Counted from the stretch's first letter, positions 5,408 to 25,506 are shown. The stretch: DNA of 32,000 nt from Leptolyngbya sp. FACHB-321 (GCF_014695975.1 NZ_JACJPI010000082.1:56568-88567), one strand, 5' to 3'. Translations and numbers: made by a program. The notes: generated by a model from the sequence alone, not told the origin.

Positions 5408-5794
5408 ATGGATCCAATGACACTCATTTTGACGGCGCTGGTTGCAGGGACAGCTAAAGCAGCGGGCGATGCGGCTCCAGATGCCTACAAAGGGTTGAAA
5501 GCACTGATTCAGAAGAAGTTTGCCAGTCAACCCAAACCAGAAGCGGACAAGGCAGCGATGGTACTGGAAGAACATGAGAAAGACCCAGAAACCTATGAGG
5601 CGGCGCTGAAGAAAAAGTTGACGGAGGCCGAGGTGGACAAAGATGCTGCAGTGGTTGAGAAGGCTCAAGAATTGCTGCAGGTTTTAGACCCCCAAGGGAC
5701 AGCAAGTGGTACCTACAATACAACCGTTGCAGGCGATGTCTACGGTGTGGCGGGTCGAAACGAAGGCACTGTGAATCAAACGTTCAACAAGTAA
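5408..5794 (+). CDS. small helical Bell/HeLo-like protein with a C-terminal amyloid-signalling-type motif (module 1)
   Basis: AGGAG lies 9 nt upstream of the ATG. The N-terminal hydrophobic helix is MDPMTLILTALVAGTAKAAG, the middle is charged and helical (…EHEKDPETYEAALKKKLTEAEVDKDAAVVEKAQELL…), and the tail is …DVYGVAGRNEGTVNQTFNK. The tail is repeated at the N-terminus of the next gene. Confidence 0.75.
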   Translation: MDPMTLILTALVAGTAKAAGDAAPDAYKGLKALIQKKFASQPKPEADKAAMVLEEHEKDPETYEAALKKKLTEAEVDKDAAVVEKAQELLQVLDPQGTASGTYNTTVAGDVYGVAGRNEGTVNQTFNK

Positions 5795-5807
5795 CTGGGT
5801 AAAGAGA

Positions 5808-8800
5808 GTGGGTATGTCAGATGAGGGTGCGGCAAACAGCGTTCACGCCAAGGATGTCTATGGTGTGGCTGGAGACAACCGAGGAACGATTATTCAAAAT
5901 TTCGTTTCTCAGGAAGCTGAAGTTAAGATTCAAAGTCGCCCACTCATCAAAGGTTCTCCTTACCTGGGGTTGGAAAAATTTGCACCGGACGATAAAGATA
6001 AGTTTTTTGGGCGAGAGCAATGGATTACTGCTTTAAGCCATGCTCTCTTAGCCGAAAACCACAATGTCTTGCTCCTACTCGGTGCCTCTGGCAGTGGTAA
6101 ATCATCGCTGATTGGAGCCGGACTCATTCCTAAGCTGAAAGATGATTGGGGTGCCTTTAAGAATCTGACGTTTGTCCCCGATGAGAACCCCTTTCAGTCT
6201 CTGCATAGCTGCTTGAGTAGTTTGTATGGGCAAGCCAAGGCGAAGATTGCGCAACCAGACGCTCAAATGCATAAGGCAGGGACGCTGGTGCGAGTAGTGG
6301 AAGCGCTGAAGCAGGAGCAGCAGTGGCTGATTTTTATTGATCAGTTTGAAGAGCTCTTTACTAGAACCCCGGAAACTGAACGTCATCGGTTTGTGAGGGA
6401 GCTGGTGCAACTGATTCAAGCCTCTCAGCAGGACAACTCGCTCAAAATTGTGCTGACGATGCGGGCTGACTTTCTAGATCGGTTGAGTCCTTATCCAGCG
6501 CTGGGCTTGCTTCATGATCGCCGTAGTCGGATGCTGACGGATATGAGCGATGGCGAGTTAACGCTAGCGATCAAGGAGCCTGCAGCGCGGAATGGCGTTG
6601 TGTTTGAGCCAGGCTTGATCGAGGCGATCATCGCTGATTACAGGGCAGGAGCAGGTTCGCTGCCCCTGTTGCAATACACGCTGGATTTGCTGTGGCAAAA
6701 CGACGATGTGAGTGATCGCGTCCTCAATCGGCAAACCTATGAAAACCTTGGCGGGGTCACAGGCGCACTGCAAACGCAAGCAAACAAAATCTATGGAGAA
6801 CTGGATGAAAAACAGCAAGAGGCCGTTAAAAAAATCTTTTTTGAATTAATCGACTTAGCCAATGATCAGCCCGTGAGCCGACGCACCCCTAAAGCGCTCT
6901 TTTGCGATGGAGGAACGCAACAAACTGTTCTGGAAACACTGATTGAGAAACGCTTGCTGGTCAGCCGTGGGGAAGGGCAGCAAGCCACCATTGAGGTCGC
7001 TCATGAGGCTTTGCTGAGAACCTGGGAAGTGTTGCAACAATTGATTCAAGACCGGAAAGACATCATTATCTTGAGAGGTCAATTGATTGCTGACGCGAAG
7101 CTGTGGCGGGCACGACGGGCAGAGAGTGAGCAAACAGCCAGGGGCGATCTCTGGAGCGGGTGGAAGCTCGATCGAGTGCTGGATTTGCAAACAAAACAAG
7201 TGCTGGATCGCCTCGACCCAGACATTCAAGCCTTTGTCGAAGCTAGCCATACCTGGCGCGATCATCAGGCGCAAAAAGATCGTCAAATCGCCCGCCGCAT
7301 TACTGTAGGCAGCAGCATCTTTGCTGGCTTGATGGCAACGGCAGCCATCTTCTCTGCCATTCAGGCAAGACAGGCAGAGATTGAGCAAATTCAAACGTTC
7401 GTGGCACTTTCAACGGCGAAACTTGCCAACGATCAAACTTTAGAAGCAGGTATTGAAAGTATCCGGGCTGGAAAAGCGCTGCAACGATCATTCTGGCAGC
7501 AGTCCTTCTGGTCAGCATTTTTGCCCGATTCTCGACTGCGGCTGCCCGTCTTAAGACAATTACAACAGATGGCCAATACTGGGCAAGAGCGGCAGCGCCT
7601 CGAAGGCCATCAAGGGCTTGTCTCTAGAGTGTTGTTCAGCCCTGATGGCCAGCAACTCGCTACCAGTGGATACGACGGCACCGCACGCCTGTGGGACACC
7701 AACGGCAAGCCACTCGCCACCCTCCAAGGTCATCAAGGGCCTGTCCTTAACGTGGTGTTCAGCCCCGATGGTAAGCAACTCGCTACCAGTGGAGTTGACG
7801 GCACCGCACGCCTGTGGGACACCAACGGCAAGCCACTCGCTACCCTCCAAGGTCATCAAGGGTTTGTCTCTAGCGTGGTGTTCAGCCCCGATGGTCAGCA
7901 ACTCGCTACCAGTGGATACGACGGCACCGCACGCCTGTGGGACACCAACGGCCAGCCACTCGCTACTCTCAAAGGCCATCAAGGGCGTGTCTCTAGCGTG
8001 GTGTTCAGCCCCGATGGTCAGCAACTCGCTACCAGTGGCGACGACGGCACCGCACGCCTGTGGGACACCAACGGCAAGCCCATCGCTGCCCTCAAAGCTC
8101 ATCAAGGGTTTGTCTCTAGCGTCGTGTTCAGCCCCGATGGTCAGCAACTTGCTACCAGTGGCGAAGACGGCACCACACGCCTGTGGGACACCAACGGCCA
8201 GCCCATCGCTACCCTCCAAGGCCATCAAGGGACTGTCTGGAGCGTGGTGTTCAGCCCCGATGGTCAGCAACTCGCTACCAGTGGAGCTGACGGCACCGCA
8301 CGCCTGTGGGACACCAACGGCCAGCCCATCGCTACCCTCCAAGGCCATCAAGGGCTTGTCGATAGCGTGGTGTTCAGCCCCGATGGCCAGCAACTCGCTA
8401 CCCATGGCGAAGACGGCACCACACGCCTGTGGAACACCAACGGCCAGCCTATCGCTGCCCTCAAAGGCCAGCAAGGGCGTGTCTCTAGCGTGGTGTTCAG
8501 CCCCGATGGTCAGCAACTCGCTACCCATGGCGAAGACGGCACACCACGCCTGTGGGACACCAACGGCCAGCCTATCGCTGCCCTCAAAGGCCATCAAGGG
8601 CGTGTCTCTAGCGTGTTGTTCAGCCCCGATGGCCAGCAACTCGCTACCAGTGGCGAAGACGGCACCGCACGCCTGTGGGACACCAACGGCAAGCCCATTG
8701 CTACCCTCAAAGGCCATCAAGGGCGTGTCTCTAGCGTGTTGTTCAGCCCCGATGGCCAGCAACTCGCTACCAGTGGCGAAGACGGCACCGCACGCCTGTG

Positions 8801-9050
8801 GGACACCAACGGCAAGCCCATTGCTACCCTCCAAGGCCATCAAGGGCTTGTCGATAGCGTGGTGTTCAGCCCCGATGGTCAGCAACTCGCTACCCATGGC
8901 GAAGACGGCACACCACGCCTGTGGCAAGTAGGGGCAATCGATGAGCTGCTCTCAAAAGAATGTGATTGGGTGCGAGATTATCTGAAAAATAGCCCCAATG
9001 TTGCCGAGGGCGATCGGCATCTTTGCGATGGTATTGGTAGCCAAAAGTAA
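5808..9050 (+). CDS. NLR-like STAND NTPase (nSTAND/NACHT-type P-loop) - TM helix - 11 WD40 repeats (module 1)
   Basis: Start is GTG 5808 or ATG 5814. The N-terminal motif is DVYGVAGDNRGTIIQNF. Leader SPYLGLEKFAPDDKDKFFGRE; Walker A LLLLGASGSGKSSL; Walker B LIFIDQFEELFT. A hydrophobic helix ITVGSSIFAGLMATAAIFSAI precedes eleven 41-aa WD40 units (GHQG.V..V.FSPDGQQLAT.G.DGTARLWDTNG.P.A.L.). Confidence 0.92.
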   Translation: MGMSDEGAANSVHAKDVYGVAGDNRGTIIQNFVSQEAEVKIQSRPLIKGSPYLGLEKFAPDDKDKFFGREQWITALSHALLAENHNVLLLLGASGSGKSSLIGAGLIPKLKDDWGAFKNLTFVPDENPFQSLHSCLSSLYGQAKAKIAQPDAQMHKAGTLVRVVEALKQEQQWLIFIDQFEELFTRTPETERHRFVRELVQLIQASQQDNSLKIVLTMRADFLDRLSPYPALGLLHDRRSRMLTDMSDGELTLAIKEPAARNGVVFEPGLIEAIIADYRAGAGSLPLLQYTLDLLWQNDDVSDRVLNRQTYENLGGVTGALQTQANKIYGELDEKQQEAVKKIFFELIDLANDQPVSRRTPKALFCDGGTQQTVLETLIEKRLLVSRGEGQQATIEVAHEALLRTWEVLQQLIQDRKDIIILRGQLIADAKLWRARRAESEQTARGDLWSGWKLDRVLDLQTKQVLDRLDPDIQAFVEASHTWRDHQAQKDRQIARRITVGSSIFAGLMATAAIFSAIQARQAEIEQIQTFVALSTAKLANDQTLEAGIESIRAGKALQRSFWQQSFWSAFLPDSRLRLPVLRQLQQMANTGQERQRLEGHQGLVSRVLFSPDGQQLATSGYDGTARLWDTNGKPLATLQGHQGPVLNVVFSPDGKQLATSGVDGTARLWDTNGKPLATLQGHQGFVSSVVFSPDGQQLATSGYDGTARLWDTNGQPLATLKGHQGRVSSVVFSPDGQQLATSGDDGTARLWDTNGKPIAALKAHQGFVSSVVFSPDGQQLATSGEDGTTRLWDTNGQPIATLQGHQGTVWSVVFSPDGQQLATSGADGTARLWDTNGQPIATLQGHQGLVDSVVFSPDGQQLATHGEDGTTRLWNTNGQPIAALKGQQGRVSSVVFSPDGQQLATHGEDGTPRLWDTNGQPIAALKGHQGRVSSVLFSPDGQQLATSGEDGTARLWDTNGKPIATLKGHQGRVSSVLFSPDGQQLATSGEDGTARLWDTNGKPIATLQGHQGLVDSVVFSPDGQQLATHGEDGTPRLWQVGAIDELLSKECDWVRDYLKNSPNVAEGDRHLCDGIGSQK
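7605..8930 (+). repeat. 11 tandem 123-bp coding repeats (WD40 units), near-identical at the DNA level
   Basis: Unit starts fall at 7605 + n*123. Units 9 (8589-8711) and 10 (8712-8834) differ at a single nucleotide by my reading. Confidence 0.92.
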
Positions 9051-10775: not shown

Positions 10776-11210
10776 ATGGAACCGCTCTCAACTGCCGCTA
10801 TTGCTGTAGCTACGCTCATCCTCAAGAAAGCCTTGGAAAAGACTGGCGAAAAGCTAGGCGAGGCGGTTAGTCATCAGGCAGCAGAGCTATTGCAGCTGAT
10901 TCAACGGAAAAACTTACCCCAGAGCAAAGCCATTGCCCAAGCAGACCAGCCGATCGACGCGGGACGAGCTGTACTGGAACTGGACACCGCTACGAAAAGT
11001 GACCCAGAACTTGCACAAAGCGTGGCAAACTTAGCGGGAGCGGTGCAAGCCGAGCCCGCCTTAGCAGCGGCCATGCCTGCTTATGCGGCGGCTTTACAAA
11101 CAGCCCCACCATCAACCACTCAGAACTTTGGCAAACTGGCTGAAAGCCTGCCAGCCCTAAAGAACGTGTTTCAGGGCAATACCTTCAATGCCCCAGTGAC
11201 GTTCAACTGA
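10776..11210 (+). CDS. small helical Bell/HeLo-like protein (module 2), ends at an in-frame TGA
   Basis: MEPLSTAAIAVATLILKKALEKTGEKLGE…, helical and Ala-rich, with tail …TTQNFGKLAESLPALKNVFQGNTFNAPVTFN. It is a clear paralogue of ORF 13395-13769 (MEPLSFTAAAIATLVFSETFKEVGKTLGK…NVYNAPVTI…). Confidence 0.72.
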   Translation: MEPLSTAAIAVATLILKKALEKTGEKLGEAVSHQAAELLQLIQRKNLPQSKAIAQADQPIDAGRAVLELDTATKSDPELAQSVANLAGAVQAEPALAAAMPAYAAALQTAPPSTTQNFGKLAESLPALKNVFQGNTFNAPVTFN

Positions 11211-11309
11211 CTGGAGTCGCCCGTACAGGCACGGGTCAAGTCACCCCCCCTCACACGACAGGAATATCAGAATCGTCAAGCCCTGCTGACCAAGGTAAAA
11301 AACTTTTGG

Positions 11310-13091
11310 GTGAAGGGGGTGCTCGAACAGTCGCTCCATGAGCAGGTGCTTATGACATTGGGACTCGAAGAGAGACCCGCAGCCGTTGCACGTCCCTGGA
11401 ATTTGTTGCTGGAGACAGGTGGACAAGCGCCAAGAACACTACCGGCTGGCACAACCGTTGTCTCTCTCTTTGACCAAATTGGCACTGGTCGCACTTTACT
11501 GATTCTGGGGGAACCCGGTTCAGGCAAAACCATTGCCCTACTCCAACTAGCGCGTGACCTCATCGCTCGTGCTGAACAGGAGGTTGAGCATCTCATCCCT
11601 GTTGTGCTCAACCTCTCTACCTGGGCACCCAATCGGCGTAAGGGACAGGCAGCAGCGTTGCTGCCCCTGAATGCTTGGCTCGTGGAGGAGTTAAGCAGTA
11701 AATACCAGGTGCCCAAGCAAGTGGGTGAAACCTGGATCAAACGGCAACAACTCCTGCTGCTGCTTGACGGCTTGGACGAAGTACGAGCAGAACTTCGTAA
11801 TGCTTGCGTTGACGCCCTCAATGCTTTTCAACAAGAGAACTCGGCAGAAATGGTAGTCTGTTGCCGCCGCCAGGAGTATGAGTTGCTTCATAGTCGCTTG
11901 CGTTGCCAGACGGCTCTTTACCTTCAAGCTTTGACACTCCAGCAAAGCCAGTCCTACCTCAACCAGTTGACCGCTGACTTAACCGGGTTGAAGCGCTTAT
12001 TGACGACTGACGCAGCACTGCAAGCACTCGCGCAGTCTCCCCTATGGCTCAATATCATGGTGCTGGCCTATCAAGGTGTGGCGCTGACCGACCGACCTGA
12101 GACGCAGGCGATCGAAGCGAAGCAGCAACAACTCTTCAATACTTACATCAGGCGTATGCTTACACATAGGGGGCAGGCTATGCCGTACTCGCCCTTCCGC
12201 ACACTGGGCTGGTTAATCTGGTTAGCGCAACAAATGGTACGGGAGTCTCAGACCGTCTTTCTCCTTGAGACCATGCAGCCGCTTTGGTTACAACAGGGTA
12301 GGGCGAAGCATTTCTATCGCGTGGGCACCCTGTTGTTTGTTGGGCTGTTTGTTGGGCTGTTTGTTGGGCTGTTTCTTGGGCTGATTTTTGGGCTGTTTGC
12401 TGGGCTAGTTGGTGGGCTGTCTTTTGGATTGATTGCTGGGTTGGTTGCTGTGTCATCTGGGGAAAAAATTGAACCTGTTGAGAAACTGACATGGTCATGG
12501 AAAAAGGCTAGAGAGGAGCTGCCTAGGGGGCTGCTTTTTGGGCTAGGTGGTTTGCTAGTTGGTTGGCTAGTTGGTTTGCTGGCTGGTTTGCTAGTTGGCT
12601 TGCTGGTTGGGGGGCTGTCGGTCACTAAAATCGAGGTAACAACAAAACCAAATCAAGGTATGTGGAACTCAGCAAAAAACGCTGTACTTGCTGGGCTAGT
12701 TGTTGGGCTGTTTGTTGGGCTGTTTCTTGGGCTGATTTTTGGGCTGTTTGCTGGGCCGATTTTTGGGCCGATTTTTGGGCTGTCTAATGTGTTTGTTGGG
12801 CTGTTTCTTGGGCTGTTTGTTGGGCTGTTTCTTGGGCTGTTTGTTGGGCTGATTTTTGGGCTGTTTGTTGGGCTGAACTATGGCGGTAGAGTTTGTATCC
12901 AGCATTTCACCTTGCGCCTCATTCTTTGTCGGCACGGGTACATGCCCTGGAACTATGCTCGTTTTCTCGACAAAGCAGTCGAACACCTTTTCCTGCAAAA
13001 AGTTGGCGGTGGCTATATTTTCATCCATCGGCTGTTGCTGGAACACTTTGCCGCTATGACCGACGAGCAGGTCAGAGAACTTCTCAACTGA
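11310..13091 (+). CDS. NACHT-family STAND NTPase with a C-terminal Gly/Leu-rich polytopic membrane region (module 2). Listed from GTG 11310, but the conserved leader extends in frame back to 11211
   Basis: Walker A LLILGEPGSGKTIALLQLA; Walker B LLLLLDGLDEV; …VVCCRRQEY…. The C-terminus has about 6 hydrophobic segments of (GLxx)n, then …GGGYIFIHRLLLEHFAAM. The upstream in-frame codons 11211-11309 encode LESPVQARVKSPPLTRQEYQNRQALLTKVKNFW, typical of pre-NACHT leaders, with no ATG/GTG/TTG. Confidence 0.85.
   Translation: MKGVLEQSLHEQVLMTLGLEERPAAVARPWNLLLETGGQAPRTLPAGTTVVSLFDQIGTGRTLLILGEPGSGKTIALLQLARDLIARAEQEVEHLIPVVLNLSTWAPNRRKGQAAALLPLNAWLVEELSSKYQVPKQVGETWIKRQQLLLLLDGLDEVRAELRNACVDALNAFQQENSAEMVVCCRRQEYELLHSRLRCQTALYLQALTLQQSQSYLNQLTADLTGLKRLLTTDAALQALAQSPLWLNIMVLAYQGVALTDRPETQAIEAKQQQLFNTYIRRMLTHRGQAMPYSPFRTLGWLIWLAQQMVRESQTVFLLETMQPLWLQQGRAKHFYRVGTLLFVGLFVGLFVGLFLGLIFGLFAGLVGGLSFGLIAGLVAVSSGEKIEPVEKLTWSWKKAREELPRGLLFGLGGLLVGWLVGLLAGLLVGLLVGGLSVTKIEVTTKPNQGMWNSAKNAVLAGLVVGLFVGLFLGLIFGLFAGPIFGPIFGLSNVFVGLFLGLFVGLFLGLFVGLIFGLFVGLNYGGRVCIQHFTLRLILCRHGYMPWNYARFLDKAVEHLFLQKVGGGYIFIHRLLLEHFAAMTDEQVRELLN
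12334..12876 (+). repeat. three blocks of 12-nt-periodic coding repeats (gggctgtttgtt-like; GLFV/GLFL/GLIF)
   Basis: gttgggctgtttgttgggctgtttcttgggctgatttttgggctgtttgctgggc occurs almost identically near 12340-12400 and 12700-12760. Confidence 0.85.
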
Positions 13092-13302
13092 CTGAGCTAA
13101 TGTGCAAGACACGGCTCTGAGCGTCTTCGTCAACCGCAGACCAAGCGCTTTCCTTGATCGGCCACTGGTTGGCACAATTGCGCCGTAAGCAGCGCTCCTG
13201 CTTCTGAGCCTCGCTGCGATCGATGCTCTCAAACTCAACTTGGTTAAAGCTTTCCAGCTCATCTTGCACTTTTTGTCGTATGCCAGCTTCACGCCTGCTC
13301 AA
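13084..13302 (-). CDS. doubtful small ORF (72 aa), possibly a DUF29-like fragment
   Basis: TTG start, convergent with the NACHT gene and overlapping its stop by 8 nt. …QDELESFNQVEFESIDRSEAQKQERCLRR… weakly recalls the DUF29 …NLIEEIESLGRSEKR… motif. A decayed paralogous copy lies at 16441-16520. Confidence 0.25.
   Translation of the reverse strand: MSRREAGIRQKVQDELESFNQVEFESIDRSEAQKQERCLRRNCANQWPIKESAWSAVDEDAQSRVLHISSVS
13204..13281 (-). repeat. about 80-bp repeat, copy A (inverted relative to copy B)
   Basis: The reverse complement atacgacaaaaagtgcaagatgagctggaaagctttaaccaagttgagtttgagagcatcgatcgcagcgaggctcag is roughly four-fifths identical by eye to 16441-16520. Confidence 0.7.
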
Positions 13303-13394
13303 AGCGGGTCGTGTTCTTTCTCAAATCTGCTGTTTTGCGGAACCACTGACATTCTTGGAGTAGAAAGAAGCAGTCTCTACTTGGAGTACTGCTA

Positions 13395-13769
13395 ATGGAA
13401 CCGCTCTCATTCACTGCCGCCGCGATCGCAACCCTCGTTTTTAGTGAAACGTTCAAGGAAGTTGGCAAAACGTTAGGGAAAGGCACCCTGGAGACGGGTG
13501 GAAAACTCGCTACTTTGCTGTGGAAAAAGCGACCAGGGGCGGCCAAAGCGCTGCAAGCTGGGGAAGCAGCGCCGGAATATAAGGACGCGATCGTCGAAGT
13601 AGAAACCTTAGCTGTAAACGATGCCGAAATTCAGGAGGCAATCGCGGCAGTGGTGCAAGCCTTGCAAGCTCAGCCGCAGGGACAGCAGATCGTCAATTCC
13701 TTCGTGCAGAAAGCAGCGAATGTGTATAACGCTCCGGTGACAATCGAGAAGCAAGACATTAACTTTTGA
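13395..13769 (+). CDS. small helical Bell/HeLo-like protein (module 3), ends at an in-frame TGA
   Basis: MEPLSFTAAAIATLVFSETFKEVGKTLGKGTLE…, helical, with tail …QQIVNSFVQKAANVYNAPVTIEKQDINF. It is a paralogue of ORF 10776-11210. Confidence 0.72.
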   Translation: MEPLSFTAAAIATLVFSETFKEVGKTLGKGTLETGGKLATLLWKKRPGAAKALQAGEAAPEYKDAIVEVETLAVNDAEIQEAIAAVVQALQAQPQGQQIVNSFVQKAANVYNAPVTIEKQDINF

Positions 13770-13853
13770 CTGCCGTCGTCGGCTTCCGGCTCCGACCAAG
13801 TAACGCCGTTCTATGACATTCCCTATCGGTCGTCTGCAAACTTTGTCGGACGG

Positions 13854-16427
13854 GTGGATGAATTGGCGCGACTGCATGAGCTTTTGCAAGCGTCTGAAGG
13901 AGCCGTGATTTCAGCCGTGGCCGGCATGGGTGGCCTAGGTAAGACGCAGCTGGCGGTGCAGTATGCAAAGCGAAACCAGGCGAGCTATCCGGGGGGTATC
14001 GCTTGGTTCAATGGCCGCACTGGAGATCTGGCGACTCAGCTCGTCTTGAAAGCAGAATTTGCTCTACATTTACCAGGCTTACAGGCAGCGAAAGAGCGCA
14101 TCACGGAAGCGGAAGCGCTAGCGCAGTGGTGTTGGCAGCATTGGCAGCCTGATGGCCTGACGCTGATCGTGCTCGATGATGTGATGCACTGGGCGGAGTG
14201 CCGCTCGTTCCTCCCGAAAGCCGATCGCTTTCGAGTGTTGGTGACGACGCGCTTGCAAGCTCTCTTACCCAATTTTCCCACTATCACGCTAGAGGTGCTG
14301 CATCCCAACGAGGCGCGATCGCTGCTGGCCTCTTTAGAGAAATTTGGACGCGTTGCCCAAGACCCTGGGCTTGCCGATCAGCTATGTGCGGGGTTGGGCT
14401 ATTTGCCGCTGGGAATCGAGTTGGTCGGCTGCTATCTGGCGAGTGATCGCTATAAAACGCTCTCTCAAGTGTGGGCTGCATTGCAGGCCAATGGGATGCA
14501 AGATTCGGCGCTGGAACGATCGCCTGACTATGAAATGACAGCCGAGCGAGGCGTCAAGGCGGCGTTTGCTTTGACCTGGGAAACGCTGTCAGCAGAGGCG
14601 CGACGAGTGGCACGCTTGCTGAGTTATTTTGCGCTCGATTGGATTGCGTGGGACTGGGCGGAATGGATAATGCAGTGCGTAGAGGGAGAGACGTATCAGT
14701 TGGGGGCACTGAAGGCACAGTTAGAGAACGCCTCACTGGTGCAGATTGAATGGGAGCGGTTGGGCTGGTGTCGTCTGCATCCCCTCGTGCAGCAGTTTTT
14801 GCGGGATGAAGAAAGAATCGACGTTGAGACGACAGGAGATGATGCTTTACGAGCGGCGTTTGTGGCAGAGATGATCGAGATCGCGAGTCAGCTGCCAGAT
14901 AACCCAACGACAAAGGAGCTTGAAGGGTTCGGAGTGGTGCGATCCCATGTCCAAGAAGTCGCCAAGCGCTTTCTTTGGCCTCAAGCCGATGCTGACTTCG
15001 ATTGGATCTACAACGGACTTGCCCGCTTTTATCAAGGACAAGCCCTATTTAAGGAGGCAGAAGCTCAGTATGCAGAGTGTTTGGCGCTAACGCAACAACT
15101 GTTTCAGGGCGACCACCCCACTGTGGCACGCAGTTTCAACAACTTGGCAGGACTCTACGACTCACAAGGACGGCTGAGTGAAGCCGAACCCTTGTATGTG
15201 CAAGCCTTAGCGATGACGAAACGGCTGTTTGAGAGCGACCACCCTGATTTAGCACGCAGTCTTAACAACTTGGCCTACCTCTACAACGCACAAGGACGGC
15301 CGAGTGAAGCCGAACCCTTGTATGTGCAAGCCTTAGCGATGACGAAACGGCTGTTTCAGGACGACCACCCCACTGTGGCAACTAGTTTCAACAACCTGGC
15401 ATTGCTCTACAAGGCACAGGGACGGCTAAGTGAGGCCGAACCCTTGTCTGTGCAAGCCTTGGCGATGATGCAACGGCTGTTTCAGGGCGACCACCCTGAT
15501 GTGGCAACCAATCTCAACAACTTGGCAGGAGTCTACAAAGCACAGGGACGGCTAAGTGAGACCGAACCCTTGTCTATGCAAGCCTTGGCAATGAGGCAAC
15601 GACTGTTTCAGGGCGACCACCCCGATGTGGCAATCGGTCTCAACAACTTGGCATCTCTCTACTATTCACAAGGACGGCTGAGTGAAGCCGAACCCTTGTA
15701 TGTGCAAGCCTTGGCGATGACGAAACGGCTGTTTCAAGGCGACCACCCCGATGTGGCAACCAATCTCAACAACTTGGCCTATCTCTATAAGGCACAAGGA
15801 CGGCTGAGTGAAGCCGAACCCTTGTATGTGCAAGCCTTGGCGATGACGAAACGGCTGTTTCAAGGCGACCACCCTGATTTAGCACGCAGTCTCAACAACT
15901 TGGCAGGAGTCTACAACGCACAAGGACAGCTGAGTGAAGCCGAACCCTTGTATGTGCAAGCCTTGGCGATGACGAAACGGCTGTTTCAGGGCGACCACCC
16001 CACTGTGGCAACCAATCTCCACAACTTGGCAGCGCTCTACAACGCACAAGGACGGCTGAGTGAAGCCGAACCCTTGTATGTGCAAGCCTTGGCGATGACG
16101 AAACGGCTGTTTCAAGGCGACCACCCCACTGTGGCAACCAATCTCCACAACTTGGCAGCGCTCTACGGCGCACGAGGACGGCTGAGTGAAGCTGAACCCT
16201 TGTATGCACAGGCTTTGGCGATGTTTGAGAGAACATCAGGCAGCCATCATCCCAACACTCAAATGGTGCGAAAAAATCTAGAGACTACCCGTCAGCAGAT
16301 GGGGCTGCCCATCCGCAGCCTTCACGAGACCAAGCTACCCACCCACGCCAATTCATCGCTCTTTCAAATCGTGCAAGCAATTCGCCGCTTCATTCGCTCC
16401 CTTCTGCGCCGCTTAGGATGGCTTTAG
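13854..16427 (+). CDS. NB-ARC-type STAND NTPase with 9-10 TPR repeats (module 3). Listed from GTG 13854, but the conserved leader extends in frame back to 13770
   Basis: P-loop AVAGMGGLGKTQLA; LTLIVLDDV; RVLVTTR; GYLPLGIELVG (GLPLA-like). Nine 42-aa TPR units follow (LFQGDHP.VA..LNNLA.LY.AQGRLSEAEPLYVQALAMTKR). Upstream in-frame codons 13770-13853 encode LPSSASGSDQVTPFYDIPYRSSANFVGR with no ATG/GTG/TTG. Confidence 0.9.
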   Translation: MDELARLHELLQASEGAVISAVAGMGGLGKTQLAVQYAKRNQASYPGGIAWFNGRTGDLATQLVLKAEFALHLPGLQAAKERITEAEALAQWCWQHWQPDGLTLIVLDDVMHWAECRSFLPKADRFRVLVTTRLQALLPNFPTITLEVLHPNEARSLLASLEKFGRVAQDPGLADQLCAGLGYLPLGIELVGCYLASDRYKTLSQVWAALQANGMQDSALERSPDYEMTAERGVKAAFALTWETLSAEARRVARLLSYFALDWIAWDWAEWIMQCVEGETYQLGALKAQLENASLVQIEWERLGWCRLHPLVQQFLRDEERIDVETTGDDALRAAFVAEMIEIASQLPDNPTTKELEGFGVVRSHVQEVAKRFLWPQADADFDWIYNGLARFYQGQALFKEAEAQYAECLALTQQLFQGDHPTVARSFNNLAGLYDSQGRLSEAEPLYVQALAMTKRLFESDHPDLARSLNNLAYLYNAQGRPSEAEPLYVQALAMTKRLFQDDHPTVATSFNNLALLYKAQGRLSEAEPLSVQALAMMQRLFQGDHPDVATNLNNLAGVYKAQGRLSETEPLSMQALAMRQRLFQGDHPDVAIGLNNLASLYYSQGRLSEAEPLYVQALAMTKRLFQGDHPDVATNLNNLAYLYKAQGRLSEAEPLYVQALAMTKRLFQGDHPDLARSLNNLAGVYNAQGQLSEAEPLYVQALAMTKRLFQGDHPTVATNLHNLAALYNAQGRLSEAEPLYVQALAMTKRLFQGDHPTVATNLHNLAALYGARGRLSEAEPLYAQALAMFERTSGSHHPNTQMVRKNLETTRQQMGLPIRSLHETKLPTHANSSLFQIVQAIRRFIRSLLRRLGWL
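15099..16232 (+). repeat. 9 tandem 126-bp coding repeats (TPR units)
   Basis: Unit starts fall at 15099 + n*126. Long stretches are identical between units (e.g. ...ggacggctgagtgaagccgaacccttgtatgtgcaagccttggcgatgacgaaacggctgtttca...). Confidence 0.9.
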
Positions 16428-16935: not shown

Positions 16936-18901
16936 TCACTTTGTCGTAGGAAGTAGGCTCTGCACCATCTCTCTGGTCTGATCATCTAAGAAGGCAATGT
17001 ACAAGCGTTTAGTCGCCCTAGTCATGAGAATGCGGTAGACATTGAGTAAGAACGGCACGATCGCCACATCATCGAGCTGAGAAAGTTGAGGATCAACATT
17101 GTCATAGTGAGGGTAGCCACCACGCTGGCCGGGTCTTGTCTGCGTGCGTAGTGGGTTGCCGACCCAACGCGCTTCACGCCAGAGAAGGTCACGTGACCAA
17201 AGTAAGCAGACGGTTGGCAGATCAAAACCTTGGGCCGTGTAGACAGAGCCAAAACTTTGTGCGCCCGAAGGGGCTGTAGCCCAAAACTCGCCTCTGGCAA
17301 GGCCCTTGGCCAGACGCCCAGGTTTTCCTTTCTTCGGCGCTTCCCAGGGATAGGCAATGACGTCTGGAATGATCACCTCGTCGACCAGAGAACCATCTGC
17401 GTGGGGTTTTTGGGCCCAGTCCCAACACCATCCTGTCAGCAGCCGCGACTGATTGGGGAACTGTGCCTCCCAGTCTTCGTGGATTTTTACCAAGTCAGCC
17501 GGGCTAGCAACCACCTCACACTCGAAGGCTCCTACATCGCCAAGTGGCTGCAGAGTCGGCTGGGGTGAAGCAAAGAGCTCATCAACCCAGTGCAGAAATT
17601 CGAGTGAGCCTGCGAGTCGGTGCTGCGCTTCTAATTGGTAATGGCATACCGTAGCGTGCTCTTGAGCAGCAGCTGTCTGAATGTCAGCAATCTGGTTGGC
17701 CTCTTTCGGTTGAATAATCTGCCTCTCGTCGATGAAAAAGATACTGACTTTGGCAGCTCTAATAATTTCGCGCACGATGGGCAGTGACGCATCTAGCGCC
17801 GCACGTGTCTTGTACTGTCGTTGACCAGAGGCCCAATCAATGGCAGCGATGCCATCCATTCTGTGAGCTTCATCGATCAAAACGACGTCACAGGCATTTT
17901 GAGGTCGATATCTAAAGCGATCAGTGTAGGAAATAAGAGGCTGAAGATGATTGCCCAACTCCTTTTGCACAGACGTCTTCATTGCAGCTGACTTGACGAC
18001 ATAGGTTGGACGTCGATTCTCTTCAAGGATTGCAGCCAAAGACTGCAGCGCAATGGCCGTCTTCCCCGATCCAGGTCCGCCTGAAACAACGATCACGGCT
18101 TTTGCTTAGTCTCTGACCGCACTGATGAGTGCGCGACGGATGCCATCGTAGACGAGGTACTGCTCGGGAATCAGTGGGAACTTGTCACGACCGTTGATGA
18201 CGGCCACTGCAAATTCGATAAATTGCCTGCTGGGTCGGATTGCACTGGAGACAAAACGGTCGTAAACCACTTGTCCATCGCCTCGTTTGAGCTCTCGGCT
18301 CAGTGTGCGCGCATAGCTCGATTTCAGGTGCGCCAATGGTCGGCGCTCTCTCCTGTAGCGACGAGTATTGGCCGCCTCGCAGGCTACTGATCGCAGGCTC
18401 AGGCAGACTAAACAGGACAGCGTAGGCACTACAGCTGAGAGCAGCGCGGTGATGACTGTGGCAAGACTCAACCCAATAACGCAAACGCTCCACAAAGAGA
18501 GCGGCTTGCAAGGATGGGTGAAGAATCTCGGTAATCCTAGAGCCATAGACATTGGCACGAACAAAGTCGGGTGAGTCTTCGACAACCTCAAAACTGCTCC
18601 ACTGCTTTAACTCTAGAACGATGAGGCGTTGTGTGCCAGCAGCATCAACGCCAAAGAGGACAACATCCGCGCGGCAGCGCGCGATTGGTTCAAGCAATTC
18701 TAAGACAATCATGGCCTCTGGATGGACATGCTTGACCAAACGCGCTATGTGCGGTGCGTTGGCACTCCAAGAGTATTGTTCCGACTTGCCAAACCCAAAC
18801 CCGGCCGTGCGCGCGCCCTCTTCCATCAAACGCTGCAAGCTGCCAGTCCTGACATCATTCAGAAAGGTGCTTACGGTCGCTGCATAAGCGCACTTGGTCA
18901 T
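16936..18901 (-). pseudogene. DUF2075-type (nuclease-like N-domain + P-loop helicase-like) gene, disrupted by a frameshift and an in-frame stop
   Basis: The N-terminal part (frame of 18185-18901) reads …RADVVLFGVD…LIVLELKQWS…HPSLQA…. Homology then continues in another frame (…RGDGQVVYDRFVSSAIRPSRQF…FPLIPEQYLVYD…) after a shift near 18310-18340. That frame reads …AVRD-TAA(18106-18108)-AKAV-IVVSGGPGSGKTAIAL…, straight into ORF 16936-18096 (…VVLIDEAHR…). A sequencing error cannot be excluded. Confidence 0.65.
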
Positions 18902-19111: not shown

Positions 19112-21655
19112 GTGCCCGTTGCCTGTTGGCCCAACTGGGTGCAGGGGCATCCTAACTGGAAGCCCAGTGGCCTAGAGGAGCATCATCACTTGGATTTTAT
19201 TGTCATTGACACAGAGGGCAGCCCCGCACTGCGTGAGCTGGCCGTGCTCGACAGCCAAGGGCAACTCCTCTACGAAGCCTTTGTAGCAGAGCATCCAGCC
19301 CATGCTAATAGCTACCGTCCCCTGAAACCGCTGCGAGCGATTGTGCAAGACATCACTCGTCTAGCACGGAACAAGTCGGTCGTCTGCCATTACGCCCAGC
19401 ATGATCTAGACGTGCTGCAGGGCAGTTTTCGCCAAGCTAATATGCCTTGGATCAGATTCAAGACTCTCTGTACCTGGGAACTGGCCAAGCAACACTTGCC
19501 GCCCTTTGAGAGTTACTCGTTAGCACACCTCAGCCAGTGTCTGCAGCTACAAGTCAACGGCAGGCGCTTCAACGCCGAGCAAGCGCATACCGCCCACTAC
19601 GATGCGGCCTTTACCCATCAGCTTTACTTAACCATCCTGGAGCACCAACAAAGGAGAGCCTTGCCCACGCCATCACCACACACACCCAATCCCTACAGCA
19701 GCAGCCGGGTGGATAACCCCTTTCAAGACCACCTGGACCTGCAGGCGGTGTATCAAGCTGAATTTGCCCTCCTGAAAGCAGCCTTAGGTGATGTCAAGGC
19801 TGACCCCAATCAGCAAAGCAAAGGCGCGGTCATACTGGGAGCTGCTGGCTCCGGTAAAACCCACCTGATCATGCGTCTGGCTAAAGAGCTGCTCCGCACT
19901 AATCGCCTGTTGTTTATCCGCCAACCCAACAATGCAACGGCGGTACTGCACCACACCTACTCACGCATCTTAGAGTCATTAGCGGAGCCCGTGGCCGGTA
20001 GTGATCGCACTCAATTGGAACTGCTCCTAGCCAACAGCTTCGTCAACATTCTCAGTTCACTGGAGCAAGTGACGGGGACACAGAAAGGGCGGGAAATTCT
20101 GGCCGCGTTTCAGGAGAATAGCTTGCAGCTTTACAGCCGCTCTGGCACGGAAGAGACGCAACGGCATCGGGCCCGGTGGGAGTATATTGAACGCCATATT
20201 ACGGAGTGGTGGGGTCGACATTACACCGCCGCTGGCGATGCCGTCACCATCCTCAGGGGCATCATCAAGTTTTGCAGCTACAGCGACCCCCACAAAAAAG
20301 ACCTGGTACGGCGCTGGCTCGCCGCTTCAGAACTGGAGACGGCGGAAGCAGAGAGTATTGGGTTAGAGAACTGGCAAGAGGACATGAGCCGGGAAGAGTT
20401 TGCTCTGGCTGCCATCACCGTCTTTGGTCGCTTATCCACCCTCGATGAACCACTCATCATCGTGTTCGATCAGCTCGAGAGCTTGGGACTGCCACACAAC
20501 ACCCTGATCCTGGAGAGCTTTGGTGCAGCCGTGAAAGAGTTGTTGACCCATGTGCCCCACAGCCTCATCATCCTGAACCTGTTTCCAGAGCGGTGGGAGC
20601 AGTTCCAAAGCTGCTTTGATGGCTCGGTCGTCGATCGCGTGTCCGATTACATTGTCCCGCTGGAGCGTCCCAGTGCCGCCCAGCTCGAAGCACTGCTCAG
20701 CTTGAGAGCCCAAGCGGTAGGACTGGAGTGGCAGACCCTCTTCACGCCCTCGGCACGCGCCAGCATCCTGAGTCAGCCCTCCATCCGCGCGGTGCTGAAG
20801 CAGGCTGGTGCTTACTTCCACGCGCGCGTCCACAACACCCCGCTACCCCGACCGACGGACGCAGCCACACCGCTGGCCGAGCGCTCGGTGACGGCACGCC
20901 TGCACCAACTGGAGCAAGTCATGGCTCAGATGGTGAGTCTCCTGCAGCCCTACTGGAGCAGCCTATCGCCAAGCGACCTACCGTCTAGCCGTGCAGAGGT
21001 GGCACCCCTCGGTCTGAGCCCGCCGGACGCCGAGTCCTTACCACCTGACCTAGACACTACCAGCGCCCCAGTGTCAGTCGCAGCTGTAGTCGCGGACTAT
21101 TTGAGCCAAAAGCGGCTGGCACTCGCGGCAGACTACACGCGACCCACGATCATTCAGGATGCCAATGAAATTGGTAAACTAGCGGCGATCGCTGCGGCGT
21201 TTCAGTTACATCAAGCCTTAGAGTTCGAGCCCTTGCGTGTCGGCAGAAGCAAGCTACCCGAGCACTTACGGATTCGAACCGCGCAACAGGAGTTTGTCAT
21301 TGGCTTCCTGAACGCCAGTGGTACGACTTTCACAGCGAGAATCAAAAATTTTAACCAGCTTGTGGCGCTGCATCCAGAGATAAAGTTTACCTTGCTCCGG
21401 GATGGGCGCGAACCCAAGCTTACGGGTGCTGTCGGTTTGGCAGAGATTGAAAAGCTGCAGCATAGTCCAAACGGTCAGTTTCAGGTGATGACACCAGACG
21501 ACCGCATCAGTTTTGAACTCATCTACAACTGTATTATCGATATTCAAGAACAGGACTTAGAGGTGGCGCTCGCGCTGGCGCTGCCGCTCCTGCTAGACTC
21601 CTTGAGTGACTACTGGCTCATGGCGGCCTTGCGTGGTCAGCCCTTGCACGCGTGA
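19112..21655 (+). CDS. DEDDh (DnaQ-like) 3'-5' exonuclease fused to a P-loop NTPase and a large uncharacterised C-terminal region
   Basis: ExoI DFIVIDTEG; ExoII VVCHYAQHDLDVL; ExoIII AHTAHYDAAF (H-x4-D). Walker A GAAGSGKT (19838-19861); a Walker B-like LIIVFDQLE lies about 200 aa later. About 390 aa follow with no motif I recognise. The start is uncertain (GTG 19112 or TTG 19190). Confidence 0.85.
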   Translation: MPVACWPNWVQGHPNWKPSGLEEHHHLDFIVIDTEGSPALRELAVLDSQGQLLYEAFVAEHPAHANSYRPLKPLRAIVQDITRLARNKSVVCHYAQHDLDVLQGSFRQANMPWIRFKTLCTWELAKQHLPPFESYSLAHLSQCLQLQVNGRRFNAEQAHTAHYDAAFTHQLYLTILEHQQRRALPTPSPHTPNPYSSSRVDNPFQDHLDLQAVYQAEFALLKAALGDVKADPNQQSKGAVILGAAGSGKTHLIMRLAKELLRTNRLLFIRQPNNATAVLHHTYSRILESLAEPVAGSDRTQLELLLANSFVNILSSLEQVTGTQKGREILAAFQENSLQLYSRSGTEETQRHRARWEYIERHITEWWGRHYTAAGDAVTILRGIIKFCSYSDPHKKDLVRRWLAASELETAEAESIGLENWQEDMSREEFALAAITVFGRLSTLDEPLIIVFDQLESLGLPHNTLILESFGAAVKELLTHVPHSLIILNLFPERWEQFQSCFDGSVVDRVSDYIVPLERPSAAQLEALLSLRAQAVGLEWQTLFTPSARASILSQPSIRAVLKQAGAYFHARVHNTPLPRPTDAATPLAERSVTARLHQLEQVMAQMVSLLQPYWSSLSPSDLPSSRAEVAPLGLSPPDAESLPPDLDTTSAPVSVAAVVADYLSQKRLALAADYTRPTIIQDANEIGKLAAIAAAFQLHQALEFEPLRVGRSKLPEHLRIRTAQQEFVIGFLNASGTTFTARIKNFNQLVALHPEIKFTLLRDGREPKLTGAVGLAEIEKLQHSPNGQFQVMTPDDRISFELIYNCIIDIQEQDLEVALALALPLLLDSLSDYWLMAALRGQPLHA

Positions 21656-22308: not shown

Positions 22309-22503
22309 AGAATTAAACGACACTTTAAAGAATTAGCTTCCCTTTCTCCCAGAGAGACTCAGAAGGCGTATAATCCCTACTCTACAGCAGTTTCACGCCT
22401 CTCAACGCCTTTTATTTTCTTTAAGCAATTCTTAAATCAAAATACTTCCTTTTCCTTTCAGAGCTTGCTAAAGTGCTTTAAAGCAAATTGCTTCCCTTTT
22501 AGC
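22299..22503 (+). repeat. putative TnsB-binding repeats of the transposon end
   Basis: tgtACATTAAAGAATTAAAC (22299-), cACTTTAAAGAATTAGCTTCCCTTT (22321-), inverted ttctttaagcaattcttaaat (22418-), and tgCTTTAAAGCAAATTGCTTCCCTTT (22474-). Confidence 0.5.
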
Positions 22504-22518
22504 AAGCGAAGGAGTGTC

Positions 22519-24564: not shown

Positions 24565-24570
24565 CTGGAA

Positions 24571-25506
24571 ATGGCTCAACCTCACCCCATCCCACAACCA
24601 AATGAGCGATCGCAACCAGTCCCTAGCCAATACCCAGCCAACCTCGCGCCTCCCCAGCCTATTGAGGCAGTGCCCCAGCGATCGCCCGAGTTACAGGTTG
24701 AAGTTGACCGCATTCGTGACAGTGAAACTTACACAGCCGTTGCTCGTGACCAACTCCTGTTCGACTGGCTGTCTTCGCAGCGAGAATCACGTGCCAGTGG
24801 CTTTGTCTTTGGAGTGAATTTTGGAGATTTGAGGAAATCTTGCCAATTTTATCAGATGCAATACGTGCGGAAACGGGGAAACCTATTCCTGACTCCCATG
24901 CCAGTGCTCTACACTGACGTTGAACAGTACGGTTCCCCGACTGACCTTTTTATTAGCATCACTCAGGCAGCAGGGAACCCCTTCGCAGGCATGGGATCGT
25001 TACGGGATTTGAGAAAACAAGCGATCGGTACGCTGAACAAATTTCAAACGAGAACTCTGATTATTGGTTATGCAGAAGCTTTGTCTGTTGAGGCGCTCAA
25101 AGAACTTGTAAAAATGAGGCGAGATCTAAAAATTTCGATTATTCTTGCTGGTTCTATGTCCTTATTTGAGTTCTTTGACCAACTTGATAAGCAGCGTGGT
25201 CAAAAATACAAGGAGATTAGGAACGCCTTTCTTGATTGCTGCCAATATCAGCGGTTCGAGCAGAACCAAATAGAGACAATGCTCGAAAGATGGGAACTTC
25301 AAGTCTTAGGCTCCTGGTCTAAGCAGCTTAATTTGAAGGCGATTCCTGGCGTTCCTAACTTCCTCTATACCCGTTGTGGAGGGCAGGCTGAACCTTTGTA
25401 TGAGATGCTACGCCAAATAGCAATTCAAGCGTTAGACGAACCGCTACAAATCAGCACAGCCACCCTCACAAAGCTATTCATATCGAAGCGAGTAGCAGGC
25501 ACATAA
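24571..25506 (+). CDS. tnsC: TnsC/TniB-like AAA+ protein with degenerate Walker A and Walker B motifs
   Basis: It sits between tnsB and tniQ. …LFDWLSSQRESRASGFVFGVNFGDLRKSC…MPVLYTDVEQYGSPTDLF…TRTLIIGYAEAL…ISIILAGS… aligns with ShCAST TnsC as I remember it. However, there is no GxxxxGK[ST] and no hhhhDE anywhere in the 311 aa. Confidence 0.8.
   Translation: MAQPHPIPQPNERSQPVPSQYPANLAPPQPIEAVPQRSPELQVEVDRIRDSETYTAVARDQLLFDWLSSQRESRASGFVFGVNFGDLRKSCQFYQMQYVRKRGNLFLTPMPVLYTDVEQYGSPTDLFISITQAAGNPFAGMGSLRDLRKQAIGTLNKFQTRTLIIGYAEALSVEALKELVKMRRDLKISIILAGSMSLFEFFDQLDKQRGQKYKEIRNAFLDCCQYQRFEQNQIETMLERWELQVLGSWSKQLNLKAIPGVPNFLYTRCGGQAEPLYEMLRQIAIQALDEPLQISTATLTKLFISKRVAGT

Follow-up and report, generated by a model that had tools for sequence, protein, structure and literature searches.

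In a 32,000-nucleotide (nt) stretch of the Leptolyngbya sp. FACHB-321 genome (GCF_014695975.1; NZ_JACJPI010000082.1:56568-88567; hereafter referred to as the window), two small open reading frames (ORFs) for Bell-like proteins end in a UGA codon that is followed, in the same frame, by an ORF for a STAND NTPase of the NLR-like kind. Comparison of these junctions with homologous loci of other cyanobacteria suggests programmed UGA readthrough, which would yield an abundant short effector and a rare effector-NLR fusion from the same gene, and we consider this explanation likely. On the best reading of the sequence, module 3 (13395-16427) and module 2 (10776-13091) would each represent one recoded gene rather than two. 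Stop identity, frame, 3' context, and a hairpin downstream of the stop are kept far beyond chance across homologs. A Bell-like effector next to a STAND NLR is a known kind of system, and the recoded junction is apparently without a prior report. This family may be the first widespread, evolutionarily conserved case in which cellular genes of bacteria undergo programmed stop-codon readthrough.

All three modules of the window lie on the plus strand. In module 3, the ORF listing and translation gave a small Bell-like ORF of 124 amino acids (aa) (ORF 3; 13395-13769), which is the proposed short termination product. It ends in ...EKQDINF-TGA, and the TGA (13767-13769) is the readthrough (recoding) site proposed on comparative grounds. 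The following 28 start-less sense codons (13770-13853; 24 codons followed by the conserved FVGR at the start of the NB-ARC module) translate to LPSSASGSDQVTPFYDIPYRSSANFVGR, with no stop and no ATG, GTG, or TTG, and the linker peptide is conserved as L.(S/P)SASGSD.VTP.Y.IPY...FVGR. An 857-codon ORF (13854-16427 as delimited by gene callers) begins at GTG 13854, the first possible start after the UGA, and encodes an NB-ARC/TPR STAND NTPase with Pfam NB-ARC, TPR_12, TPR_10, and NPHP3-type TPR matches; NB-ARC lies at approximately 13863-14501, the Walker A motif GMGGLGKT at 13923-13946, and about ten TPR units at approximately 15006-16370. An earlier, sequence-only reading of the window had drawn attention to this junction, and its coordinates for the end of ORF 3, the start-less codons, the GTG, and the NB-ARC/TPR gene were all confirmed on the sequence. 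With the T of the TGA numbered +1, the 3' context CUG CCG UC (13770-13777; family consensus, CUA mAG yC) forms the 8-nt spacer between the stop and a hairpin, GUCGG-N9-CCGAC (13778-13796; arms at 13778-13782 and 13792-13796), whose first G is at +12. The proposed long product of module 3 would extend through the UGA from 13395 to 16427. The linker that separates ORF 3 from the NB-ARC gene has no promoter-like or terminator-like site. Upstream of ORF 3, past the end of module 2, lies a terminator-like hairpin with a T-run (13293-13309), so that module 3 may be a transcription unit of its own.

ORF 3 is 100% identical to H6F76_25345. Its orthologs in Leptolyngbyaceae include 24 proteins of 122 to 126 aa (73 to 96% identity) and 1 more of 134 aa that is N-terminally extended, and in a 25-sequence alignment, which includes one 171-aa relative, all sequences have a common last residue. 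The N terminus is MEPLSFTAAAIATLVF, in which M-E-P precedes a hydrophobic helix, and ORF 3 combines the features by which such effectors are recognized (<200 aa, a helical fold whose N-terminal helix is hydrophobic, and an acidic side chain at position 2 to 3). Its AlphaFold model (pLDDT, 71; pTM, 0.61) is all-helical over residues 8-110, and residues 110-124 (pLDDT, <50) form a disordered C-terminal tail. Pfam, NCBIfam, and PADLOC, which contain no Bell profile, gave no family for the small ORFs of the window, and neither a Foldseek comparison of the ORF 3 model with the PDB nor a profile search of PDB sequences produced a credible match to Bell or Bab. The placement of ORF 3 among Bell-like effectors is indirect and is suggested by its architecture, its predicted helical fold, and tblastn relatives that sit in canonical motif pairs. 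Directly before the stop, ORF 3 carries a C-terminal motif resembling those of amyloid signaling (QIVNSFVQKAANVYNAPVTIEKQDINF; 13686-13766) that is kept in orthologs; the motif would be amyloid-type by analogy, since comparable motifs of two-gene relatives recur at the NLR N terminus.

The small Bell-like ORF of module 2 (10776-11210; 144 aa) ends in ...NTFNAPVTFN-UGA (11208-11210), followed by CUG GAG UCG, and a hairpin, GCCCGU-N6-ACGGGU (11219-11236), also begins at +12. The NACHT NTPase ORF (11211-13091) is in frame with this UGA, its first canonical start is GTG 11310, and Pfam NACHT covers residues 94-252 of the readthrough-numbered ORF. The Bell family of module 2 is 107 to 154 aa long in each of the 120 homologs listed of 166 found, none of which is a fusion. 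Among the homologous loci sampled, seven of seven end in TGA and six of seven have an in-frame STAND NTPase. The motifs of module 2 (11160-11207; FQGNTFNAPVTFN) and module 3 (13719-13766; ANVYNAPVTIEKQDINF) have the core N-A-P-V-T in common, and given this shared core, the neighboring modules might cross-seed each other.

Module 1 (5408-9050) is a comparison case, i.e., a classical two-gene pair consisting of a Bell-like ORF (5408-5794) and an nSTAND1/WD40 NLR (5808-9050). The Bell-like ORF ends in ...ACGTTCAACAAG-TAA-CTGG, and the NLR is in another frame. As had been proposed from the sequence alone, this NLR has its own start and its own N-terminal motif copy, KDVYGVAGDNRGTIIQNF, matching the effector's GDVYGVAGRNEGTVNQTFNK; GDVYGVAGRNEGTVNQTF of the effector likewise aligns with the NLR copy, and the Smith-Waterman score between the Bell C terminus and the NLR N terminus is 73. 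An adjacent collinear STAND NTPase is present in all three modules (i.e., NB-ARC plus TPR in module 3, NACHT in module 2, and nSTAND1 plus WD40 in module 1).

A profile of ORF 3 orthologs led to the identification of 80 loci from species-representative genomes (Nostocales, Leptolyngbyales, Oscillatoriales-type metagenome-assembled genomes, and Chroococcales), and each junction was read mechanically. Of the 77 intact small ORFs found in this genome scan, 65 end in TGA and 12 in TAA or TAG, although the 84% UGA share is a biased frequency because two peptide patterns taken from ORF 3 relatives served as seeds for the locus set. At the TGA loci with NB-ARC, the Walker A motif (GMGG[VL]GKT) is in frame 0 in 58/58 cases, 49 to 62 codons past the stop and with no stop between, whereas the NLR is in frame +1 or +2 at all 12 TAA/TAG loci. 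Stop identity and NLR frame are thus perfectly associated (Fisher p = 9e-14, which is not a true probability because the loci are related and phylogeny was uncorrected). A tabulation of stop and context of the kind that the sequence-only reading had recommended, made on these loci, bears out the coupling of UGA with frame 0. The downstream frame is open for hundreds of codons (up to 1053; 400 to 1050 in most loci with sufficient contig).

Six further loci of the window clade (L088 to L093, of which L088 resembles a second copy of L001) all have a TGA and an in-frame continuation, and the same arrangement was found on three plasmids, i.e., Acaryochloris marina pREB4 and pREB5 and a plasmid of Nostoc sp. 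UHCC 0870. The in-frame UGA loci total 79, with both window junctions included, and represent at least five cyanobacterial orders; the concern that the junction might be unique to this assembly is thereby removed. At 70% and 50% Bell identity, the 79 loci form 15 and 6 clusters, respectively, and all Bell ORFs join at 40% identity. None of the 79 in-frame loci has a sense codon, TAA, or TAG at the UGA position. The ordinary stops of long ORFs in the same loci are TAA (52%), TAG (28%), and TGA (19%). A metagenome scan with ORF 3 yielded only one locus, apparently L001 in a second copy. No fused protein was found when 5.8 billion proteins were searched with a profile that spans the junction and has W at the stop; the only seven hits were weak and one-sided. 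Almost all proteins recovered by the exhaustive profile search are 43 to 220 aa long. Among the 150 cluster representatives listed, the only full effector-NTPase fusion is P0290 (909 aa), a genuine all-in-one Bell-NACHT protein with a Gly/Asn/Gln-rich motif-like stretch between its domains and without the LxSP linker; another, P0224, has 364 aa.

The nucleotides after the UGA are also conserved. At 59 NB-ARC-type junctions, the codon following the UGA is CTA in 53 and CTG in 4 (CUR, 57/59), and it is followed by mAG and then yCG. The TGA-CTG junction highlighted by the sequence-only reading is present in modules 2 and 3 but proved to be the minority form of a signal in which CTA prevails. By position, the counts are 58 for C at +4, 58 for U at +5, 55 for A at +6, 57 for G at +9, 59 for C at +11, and 59 for G at +12. 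The G at +12 is invariant although it occupies a 4-fold degenerate site (Ser/Pro codons), and the next 4-fold site, +15, is free to vary (G, 6; T, 26; C, 27). The codons concerned are not favored in the same genomes; TCG (16%) and CCG (13%) are rare, and CTA accounts for 12% of Leu codons. Of 52 TGA codons that serve as ordinary stops of long ORFs at these loci, none is followed by CTA and one is followed by CTG.

Hairpins with 5 bp or more and their first base exactly at +12 were identified in 46 of 57 unique junctions (81%), compared with 5.7% of shuffled sequences. The stems include GCCCG/CGGGU, GCCUG/CAGGU, GCCUG/CGGGC, GUCCG/CGGAC, GUCUG/CAGAC, and GCCCC/GGGGU, with GUCGG/CCGAC in the window clade. 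In 41 sequences that share a common register, compensatory double changes occur at three of the five stem pairs, and the covariation score (0.384 versus 0.285 +/- 0.018) was reached by none of 500 shuffles. Sliding the partner strand by one column lowered pairing from 99.5% to 38 to 39%, where the paired fraction is biased because the 41 sequences were picked for an 8-nt-loop register. Both window hairpins had been described from the sequence alone as perhaps due to chance; they are present as described, and the conserved position and covariation of the element argue against chance. The 8-nt spacer would set the stem at the mRNA entrance of the ribosome with the UGA in the A site, as for known readthrough and frameshift stimulators.

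The linker between the UGA and the NB-ARC module shows coding constraint of two kinds. In the window clade (10 sequences), nonsynonymous divergence (dN), synonymous divergence (dS), and dN/dS are 0.18, 1.52, and 0.12 for the Bell helices; 0.19, 0.26, and 0.72 for linker codons 1-13; 0.27, 0.88, and 0.31 for linker codons 14-24; and 0.36, 1.46, and 0.25 for NB-ARC codons 25-64. Synonymous change in linker codons 1-13 is suppressed approximately 6-fold (dS of 0.26 versus approximately 1.5 in the flanks). The low dS in codons 1-13, together with the dN/dS of 0.31 in codons 14-24, indicates that the first ~40 nt are constrained as RNA and the remainder as protein. In the Nostoc group, dN is 0.11 in the linker versus 0.10 in the first 40 NB-ARC codons, and dS is 0.21 versus 0.71. 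Linkers have 24, 25, 26, or 28 codons, so that every indel preserves frame 0, and nearly all sequences are interrupted by stops in frames +1 and +2. A linker that evolved as noncoding DNA, which would have spoken against the proposal of the sequence-only reading, was not what we observed.

No start codon is conserved across loci, including GTG 13854, and 20 of 70 NB-ARC loci have no ATG, GTG, or TTG between the UGA and F[VI]GR; these start-less loci include the window and all of its clade (L001 to L005, L089, L090, L092, and L093). Initiation exclusively at GTG 13854 is disfavored by these observations, and only to that degree. In Acaryochloris marina MBIC11017, the pREB5 (L094:1075-3488) and pREB4 (L096:1075-3215) loci have no ATG, GTG, or TTG before the P-loop, and the RefSeq start of AM1_RS35320 and AM1_RS33650 is an ATT 16 codons past the UGA (seen directly in pREB5; the pREB4 coordinates are identical). 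Gene callers place arbitrary starts 16 to 40 codons downstream of the UGA.

The two-gene relatives and the UGA loci differ in where the NLR obtains its motif. In the TAA/TAG relatives, the NLR has its own ATG, often directly past the effector stop, and 42 to 70 aa ahead of F[VI]GR, whereas the UGA loci have only a 24- to 28-codon linker from the stop to the F[VI]GR..EL that opens the NB-ARC module. Smith-Waterman scores between the Bell C terminus and the NLR N terminus range from 19 to 77 over all 13 two-gene loci, and in 8 of these the NLR N-terminal region clearly repeats the effector C-terminal motif (scores of 30 to 77; e.g., LAEKIGVVNQGTVVNQQN versus VVEKIGVVNQGTVENQQN in L057). No copy of the effector motif was found in the linkers of modules 2 and 3 and of 59 UGA loci (median score, 13; maximum, 20). 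A UGA-locus NLR translated alone would consequently be without a motif for signaling to the adjoining effector, whereas one read through the UGA would carry the whole effector and its motif at its N terminus. Bell/BASS-NLR pairs are recognized by a motif on both proteins; the annotated proteins of modules 2 and 3 do not show this property, and the readthrough product would. The view that the three modules represent split and unsplit states of one architecture is supported by this contrast, in which the TAA/TAG relatives are out of frame with a longer N-terminal extension and the UGA loci have no second copy.

We propose that translation mostly ends at the UGA, the product being the short Bell-like protein that has the amyloid-type motif at its C terminus and would be the effector. 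A minority of ribosomes would decode the UGA, probably by near-cognate tRNA-Trp, and continue through the 24- to 28-codon linker into the STAND NTPase, giving a Bell-motif-NB-ARC-TPR (or NACHT) protein as the sensor. For module 3, the long product would contain the junction peptide ...INF-X-LPSSASGSDQVTPFYDIPYR (with ...DINF upstream of the UGA). Three features would program this event: the identity of the stop as UGA, the CUA/CUG-nAG-yC context on its 3' side, and the small hairpin 8 nt past the stop, for which a stimulatory role is presumed. Readthrough by ribosomes is suggested here by comparative sequence data, and the amino acid inserted and a low efficiency are presumed. UGAC is reportedly (from work by Poole and coworkers in 1995) the weakest termination signal of E. 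coli. UGA is the most readthrough-prone stop in E. coli, via near-cognate tRNAs (PMC5373646), and UGA-CUA is a weak termination context that alone suffices for readthrough in fungi and animals (PMC4207609). Readthrough would stand in for the second motif copy carried by the NLR of two-gene pairs and would fix a low sensor-to-effector ratio from one mRNA. Upon ligand sensing, the rare long isoform would oligomerize, its motifs would cluster, and an amyloid fold would be nucleated; the abundant short isoform would in turn be templated by this fold and would attack the membrane through its helical domain (i.e., abortive infection or regulated cell death). The amyloid and cell death steps are modeled by analogy on Bell/BASS-NLR pairs and on the Bab/Agp system of E. 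coli, which has been studied experimentally.

The annotation by gene callers and RefSeq implies a different explanation, in which two separate genes happen to share a frame and the NLR is translated by independent initiation or by termination-reinitiation (at GTG 13854, at another GTG or TTG, or at a noncanonical codon). Bell/NLR two-gene pairs are indeed often tightly coupled (bioRxiv 10.1101/2020.01.06.895854), and many Nostoc loci have an in-frame TTG or GTG 2 to 8 codons before FVGR that such initiation could use. Separate genes, however, need no shared frame, yet frame 0 is found in 58/58 UGA loci and another frame in 12/12 TAA/TAG loci. They also leave unexplained the invariable UGA with its CUA-nAG-yCG context and the purifying selection on start-less linker codons, and they find no conserved start, with none at all before the P-loop in Acaryochloris. 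The NLR that they would produce has no motif with which to address the adjacent effector. We regard this explanation as unlikely. Nearly complete sense decoding of the UGA, by a suppressor tRNA or an unusual tRNA-Trp, would instead make each locus a plain all-in-one NLR gene with a negligible short product. Conservation data give no efficiency, and tRNA-Trp(CCA) variants with 4-bp anticodon stems read UGA in bacteria (PMC13092985), both of which leave room for this idea. UGA nevertheless ends 19% of the long ORFs at these loci, no tRNA is encoded in the window, and a sense codon would serve the purpose but is never seen; moreover, an amyloid-type motif exactly at the C terminus of the short product is sensible only if a free short form exists. 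On balance, we find complete decoding quite improbable.

A conserved hairpin approximately 8 to 11 nt past an in-frame UGA also superficially resembles the spacing of the minimal E. coli selenocysteine insertion sequence (SECIS) and might suggest that the UGA encodes selenocysteine and that the hairpin is a SelB-bound bacterial SECIS. Real selenoproteins nearly always have Cys homologs, but no homolog with Cys or another sense codon at the UGA position was found in the profile searches. The site lies in an interdomain linker rather than in a redox center, the hairpin has only 5 bp, and the 32-kb window has no Rfam match and no tRNA-Sec. The SelA/SelB trait was not detected in Cyanobacteria in a 2006 comparative genomic survey of bacterial genomes (PMC1794560), and we judge selenocysteine to be highly improbable. 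Least credible of all is the decay of all-in-one Bell-NLR genes into pseudogenes, or a stop that is an error of sequencing or assembly. All-in-one Bell-NLR proteins are known (P0290; bioRxiv 10.1101/2020.01.06.895854), and three paralogs (L028, L067, and L076) have truncated Bell ORFs, but the same stop at the same position in 79 loci, complete genomes and plasmids included, effectively excludes decay and error. Both flanks are under purifying selection with saturated synonymous sites (dS of approximately 1.5), the downstream frame stays open for 400 to 1050 codons in most loci with enough contig, and the stop is never TAA or TAG.

Three other candidates were ruled out. Genome-wide reassignment of UGA is incompatible with its use as the ordinary stop of 19% of long ORFs in the same loci; prfB-type +1 frameshifting at UUU/UUC-UGA-C would require an open +1 frame, which is closed, and it is the zero frame that is open; and an uninterrupted all-in-one Bell-NLR gene is contradicted by the UGA in all 79 loci, with no sense variant, P0290 being without this linker.

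Several observations weigh against programmed readthrough and have to be set beside the evidence for it. The cassette may have arisen once, in which case the locus counts would reflect long retention under selection and not independent origins. The TTG or GTG codons before FVGR in many Nostoc loci are incidental in-frame Leu or Val codons, and additional independent initiation may yield a motif-less NLR in some of these loci. A few loci depart from CUR after the UGA (AAG, AUC, AUA, CCA, and CAG). The hairpin is weak (-5 to -9 kcal/mol; median, 12th percentile versus windows of the same loci), and the window's own 60 nt, when folded, showed no significant structure (z = 0.17), so that support for the hairpin comes from the comparison across loci only, a comparison to which the selected register of the covariation set also applies. 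The subgroup with 25-codon linkers (L023, L029, L031, L036 to L038, L040, L045, L047, L048, and L062) is without the +12 hairpin; these loci have GUCG-CCC-CAAG-GGG-AAU-CGAU from +9, and their context TGA-CTA-AAG-TCG is fully invariant. Finally, bacteria very rarely use programmed readthrough in their cellular genes (PMC5373646).

If the long isoform is made by readthrough, the level of readthrough could itself serve as the alarm: weakened RF2-dependent termination would raise the long isoform past a self-nucleation threshold and cause amyloid-driven death. We put this idea forward as a speculation that is probably wrong. Its triggers would be equally conjectural and could include phage UGA-suppressor tRNAs, stop-codon-recoded phages, inhibition or depletion of release factors, and ribosome stress. 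Were it true, the in-frame UGA would guard termination, and the system would be an immune sensor of genetic code fidelity.

The cassette also occurs next to other kinds of downstream sequence. In a Leptolyngbya locus (L091:3001-5481; JACJRM010000006.1), the effector family, the UGA, the hairpin, and the first 13 linker codons are as in module 3 and are followed by NACHT, which suggests recombination just 3' of the cassette. At three loci (L039:315-1700, L061:4001-5125, and L066:4001-5125), the in-frame sequence after the TGA-CTR cassette encodes either a transmembrane helix plus a Pro-rich region or a PPC (pre-peptidase C-terminal) domain, and no NTPase. The NACHT of the former and the other ORFs of the latter indicate that the recoding cassette is a module not limited to NLRs. 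Coleofasciculus sp. S288 (L085:3501-4253) has a TGA-ATG junction with an in-frame 99-codon ORF that has its own ATG and no recognizable domain; CHASE2 and CHAT genes lie near this junction. In L028, L067, and L076 (match starts, 4001), the Bell-like ORF is cut at 67 to 84 codons by a premature TAA or TAG, and these loci are probably decayed copies, showing real pseudogenization in the Bell-like family.

The remainder of the window (57-860, 1823-2950, 16936-18096 on the minus strand, 19112-21655, 22465-25506, and 27599-30217) encodes a YhcG-type PDDEXK nuclease, DUF3616, a Schlafen-like helicase, a fourth STAND NTPase (nSTAND5/AAA_16, with a DEDDh-like N terminus according to PADLOC), Tn7-like Mu-transposase_C and TniB, and a TerB plus dynamin-family GTPase. 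The window looks like a defense or mobile island. Rfam and ARAGORN searches of the window gave no Rfam match and no tRNA.

To our knowledge, conserved programmed readthrough of bacterial cellular genes is almost undocumented, known UGA recoding being mostly selenocysteine, phage Qbeta, and unprogrammed leakage, and we know of no description of the UGA-CUA triplet context as a conserved bacterial signal. The main publications on these systems (Dyrka 2020, Ibarlosa 2024, Kaur 2020, Kaur 2021, and a 2026 STAND survey) do not mention readthrough or in-frame stops, and a literature search, which was not exhaustive, revealed no conserved counterpart of readthrough by UGA-CUA plus a 3' structure among bacterial cellular genes. 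The loci described here would provide one, in the form of a short signal (UGA-CUA-nAG-yC with the +12 hairpin) kept in dozens of species from at least five cyanobacterial orders. Its likeness to the eukaryotic UGA-CUA context would point to a common ribosomal weakness. The loci would also add a third NLR amyloid-signaling architecture to pairs and all-in-one proteins, i.e., one ORF with two isoforms whose ratio is set by termination efficiency. As a portable cassette of approximately 35 nt for a fixed readthrough ratio, the element would serve cyanobacterial synthetic biology.

The closest known systems are the Bell/BASS-NLR pairs (Dyrka et al., bioRxiv 10.1101/2020.01.06.895854), which are alike in their small helical effector, short C-terminal motif, adjacent collinear STAND gene, and presence in cyanobacteria. 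Exactly this two-gene architecture is seen in module 1 and in the 12 relatives ending in TAA or TAG. Modules 2 and 3 are unlike these pairs in that the NLR has neither its own motif nor a conserved start, and what connects it to the effector is an in-frame UGA with a conserved recoding-like signal. Dyrka et al. sought motif pairs in annotated proteins and made no mention of stop codons or readthrough (bioRxiv 10.1101/2020.01.06.895854), and because their survey relied on annotated proteins, UGA loci would not have been counted as pairs. The amyloid-signaling NLRs of cyanobacteria are probably undercounted, since surveys of annotated proteins would miss UGA loci. In the E. coli Bab/Agp system of antiphage abortive infection (bioRxiv 10.1101/2024.11.07.622273) and in fungal HET-S/NWD2, a motif-bearing sensor templates a membrane-damaging effector, and the same logic is proposed here. 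Those systems, however, consist of two separately translated proteins that each have the motif, whereas here one ORF would give a sensor bearing the whole effector at its N terminus.

In phage Qbeta, the rare, C-terminally extended A1 protein coassembles with the abundant short coat protein. Coat/A1 resembles the present proposal in low-frequency bacterial UGA readthrough that supplies an abundant short protein and a rare extended one that coassembles with it. Unlike the Qbeta phage gene, whose coat/A1 readthrough is cited in PMC7026636, the loci described here form a cellular family on chromosomes and plasmids, with a conserved 3' motif and hairpin and a 600- to 1000-residue extension. In murine leukemia virus (MuLV) gag-pol and other viral readthrough cases, an RNA structure lies approximately 8 nt past the stop. 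We liken the +12 hairpin to the 3' structures that stimulate readthrough in MuLV and alphaviruses. Eukaryotic and viral UGA-CUA(G) readthrough (PMC4207609) has the same UGA followed by CUA, with UGA strongly favored over UAG and UAA. The eukaryotic and viral cases nevertheless act on eukaryotic ribosomes and eRF1, whereas the bacterial element runs to +12 and has a hairpin of only 5 bp. All-in-one Bell-NLR proteins (e.g., P0290) have the domain order of the predicted long isoform, i.e., Bell-NTPase-repeats. Their genes have no stop and would supply no free effector pool, whereas the loci described here have an invariant stop with an amyloid-type motif just before it.

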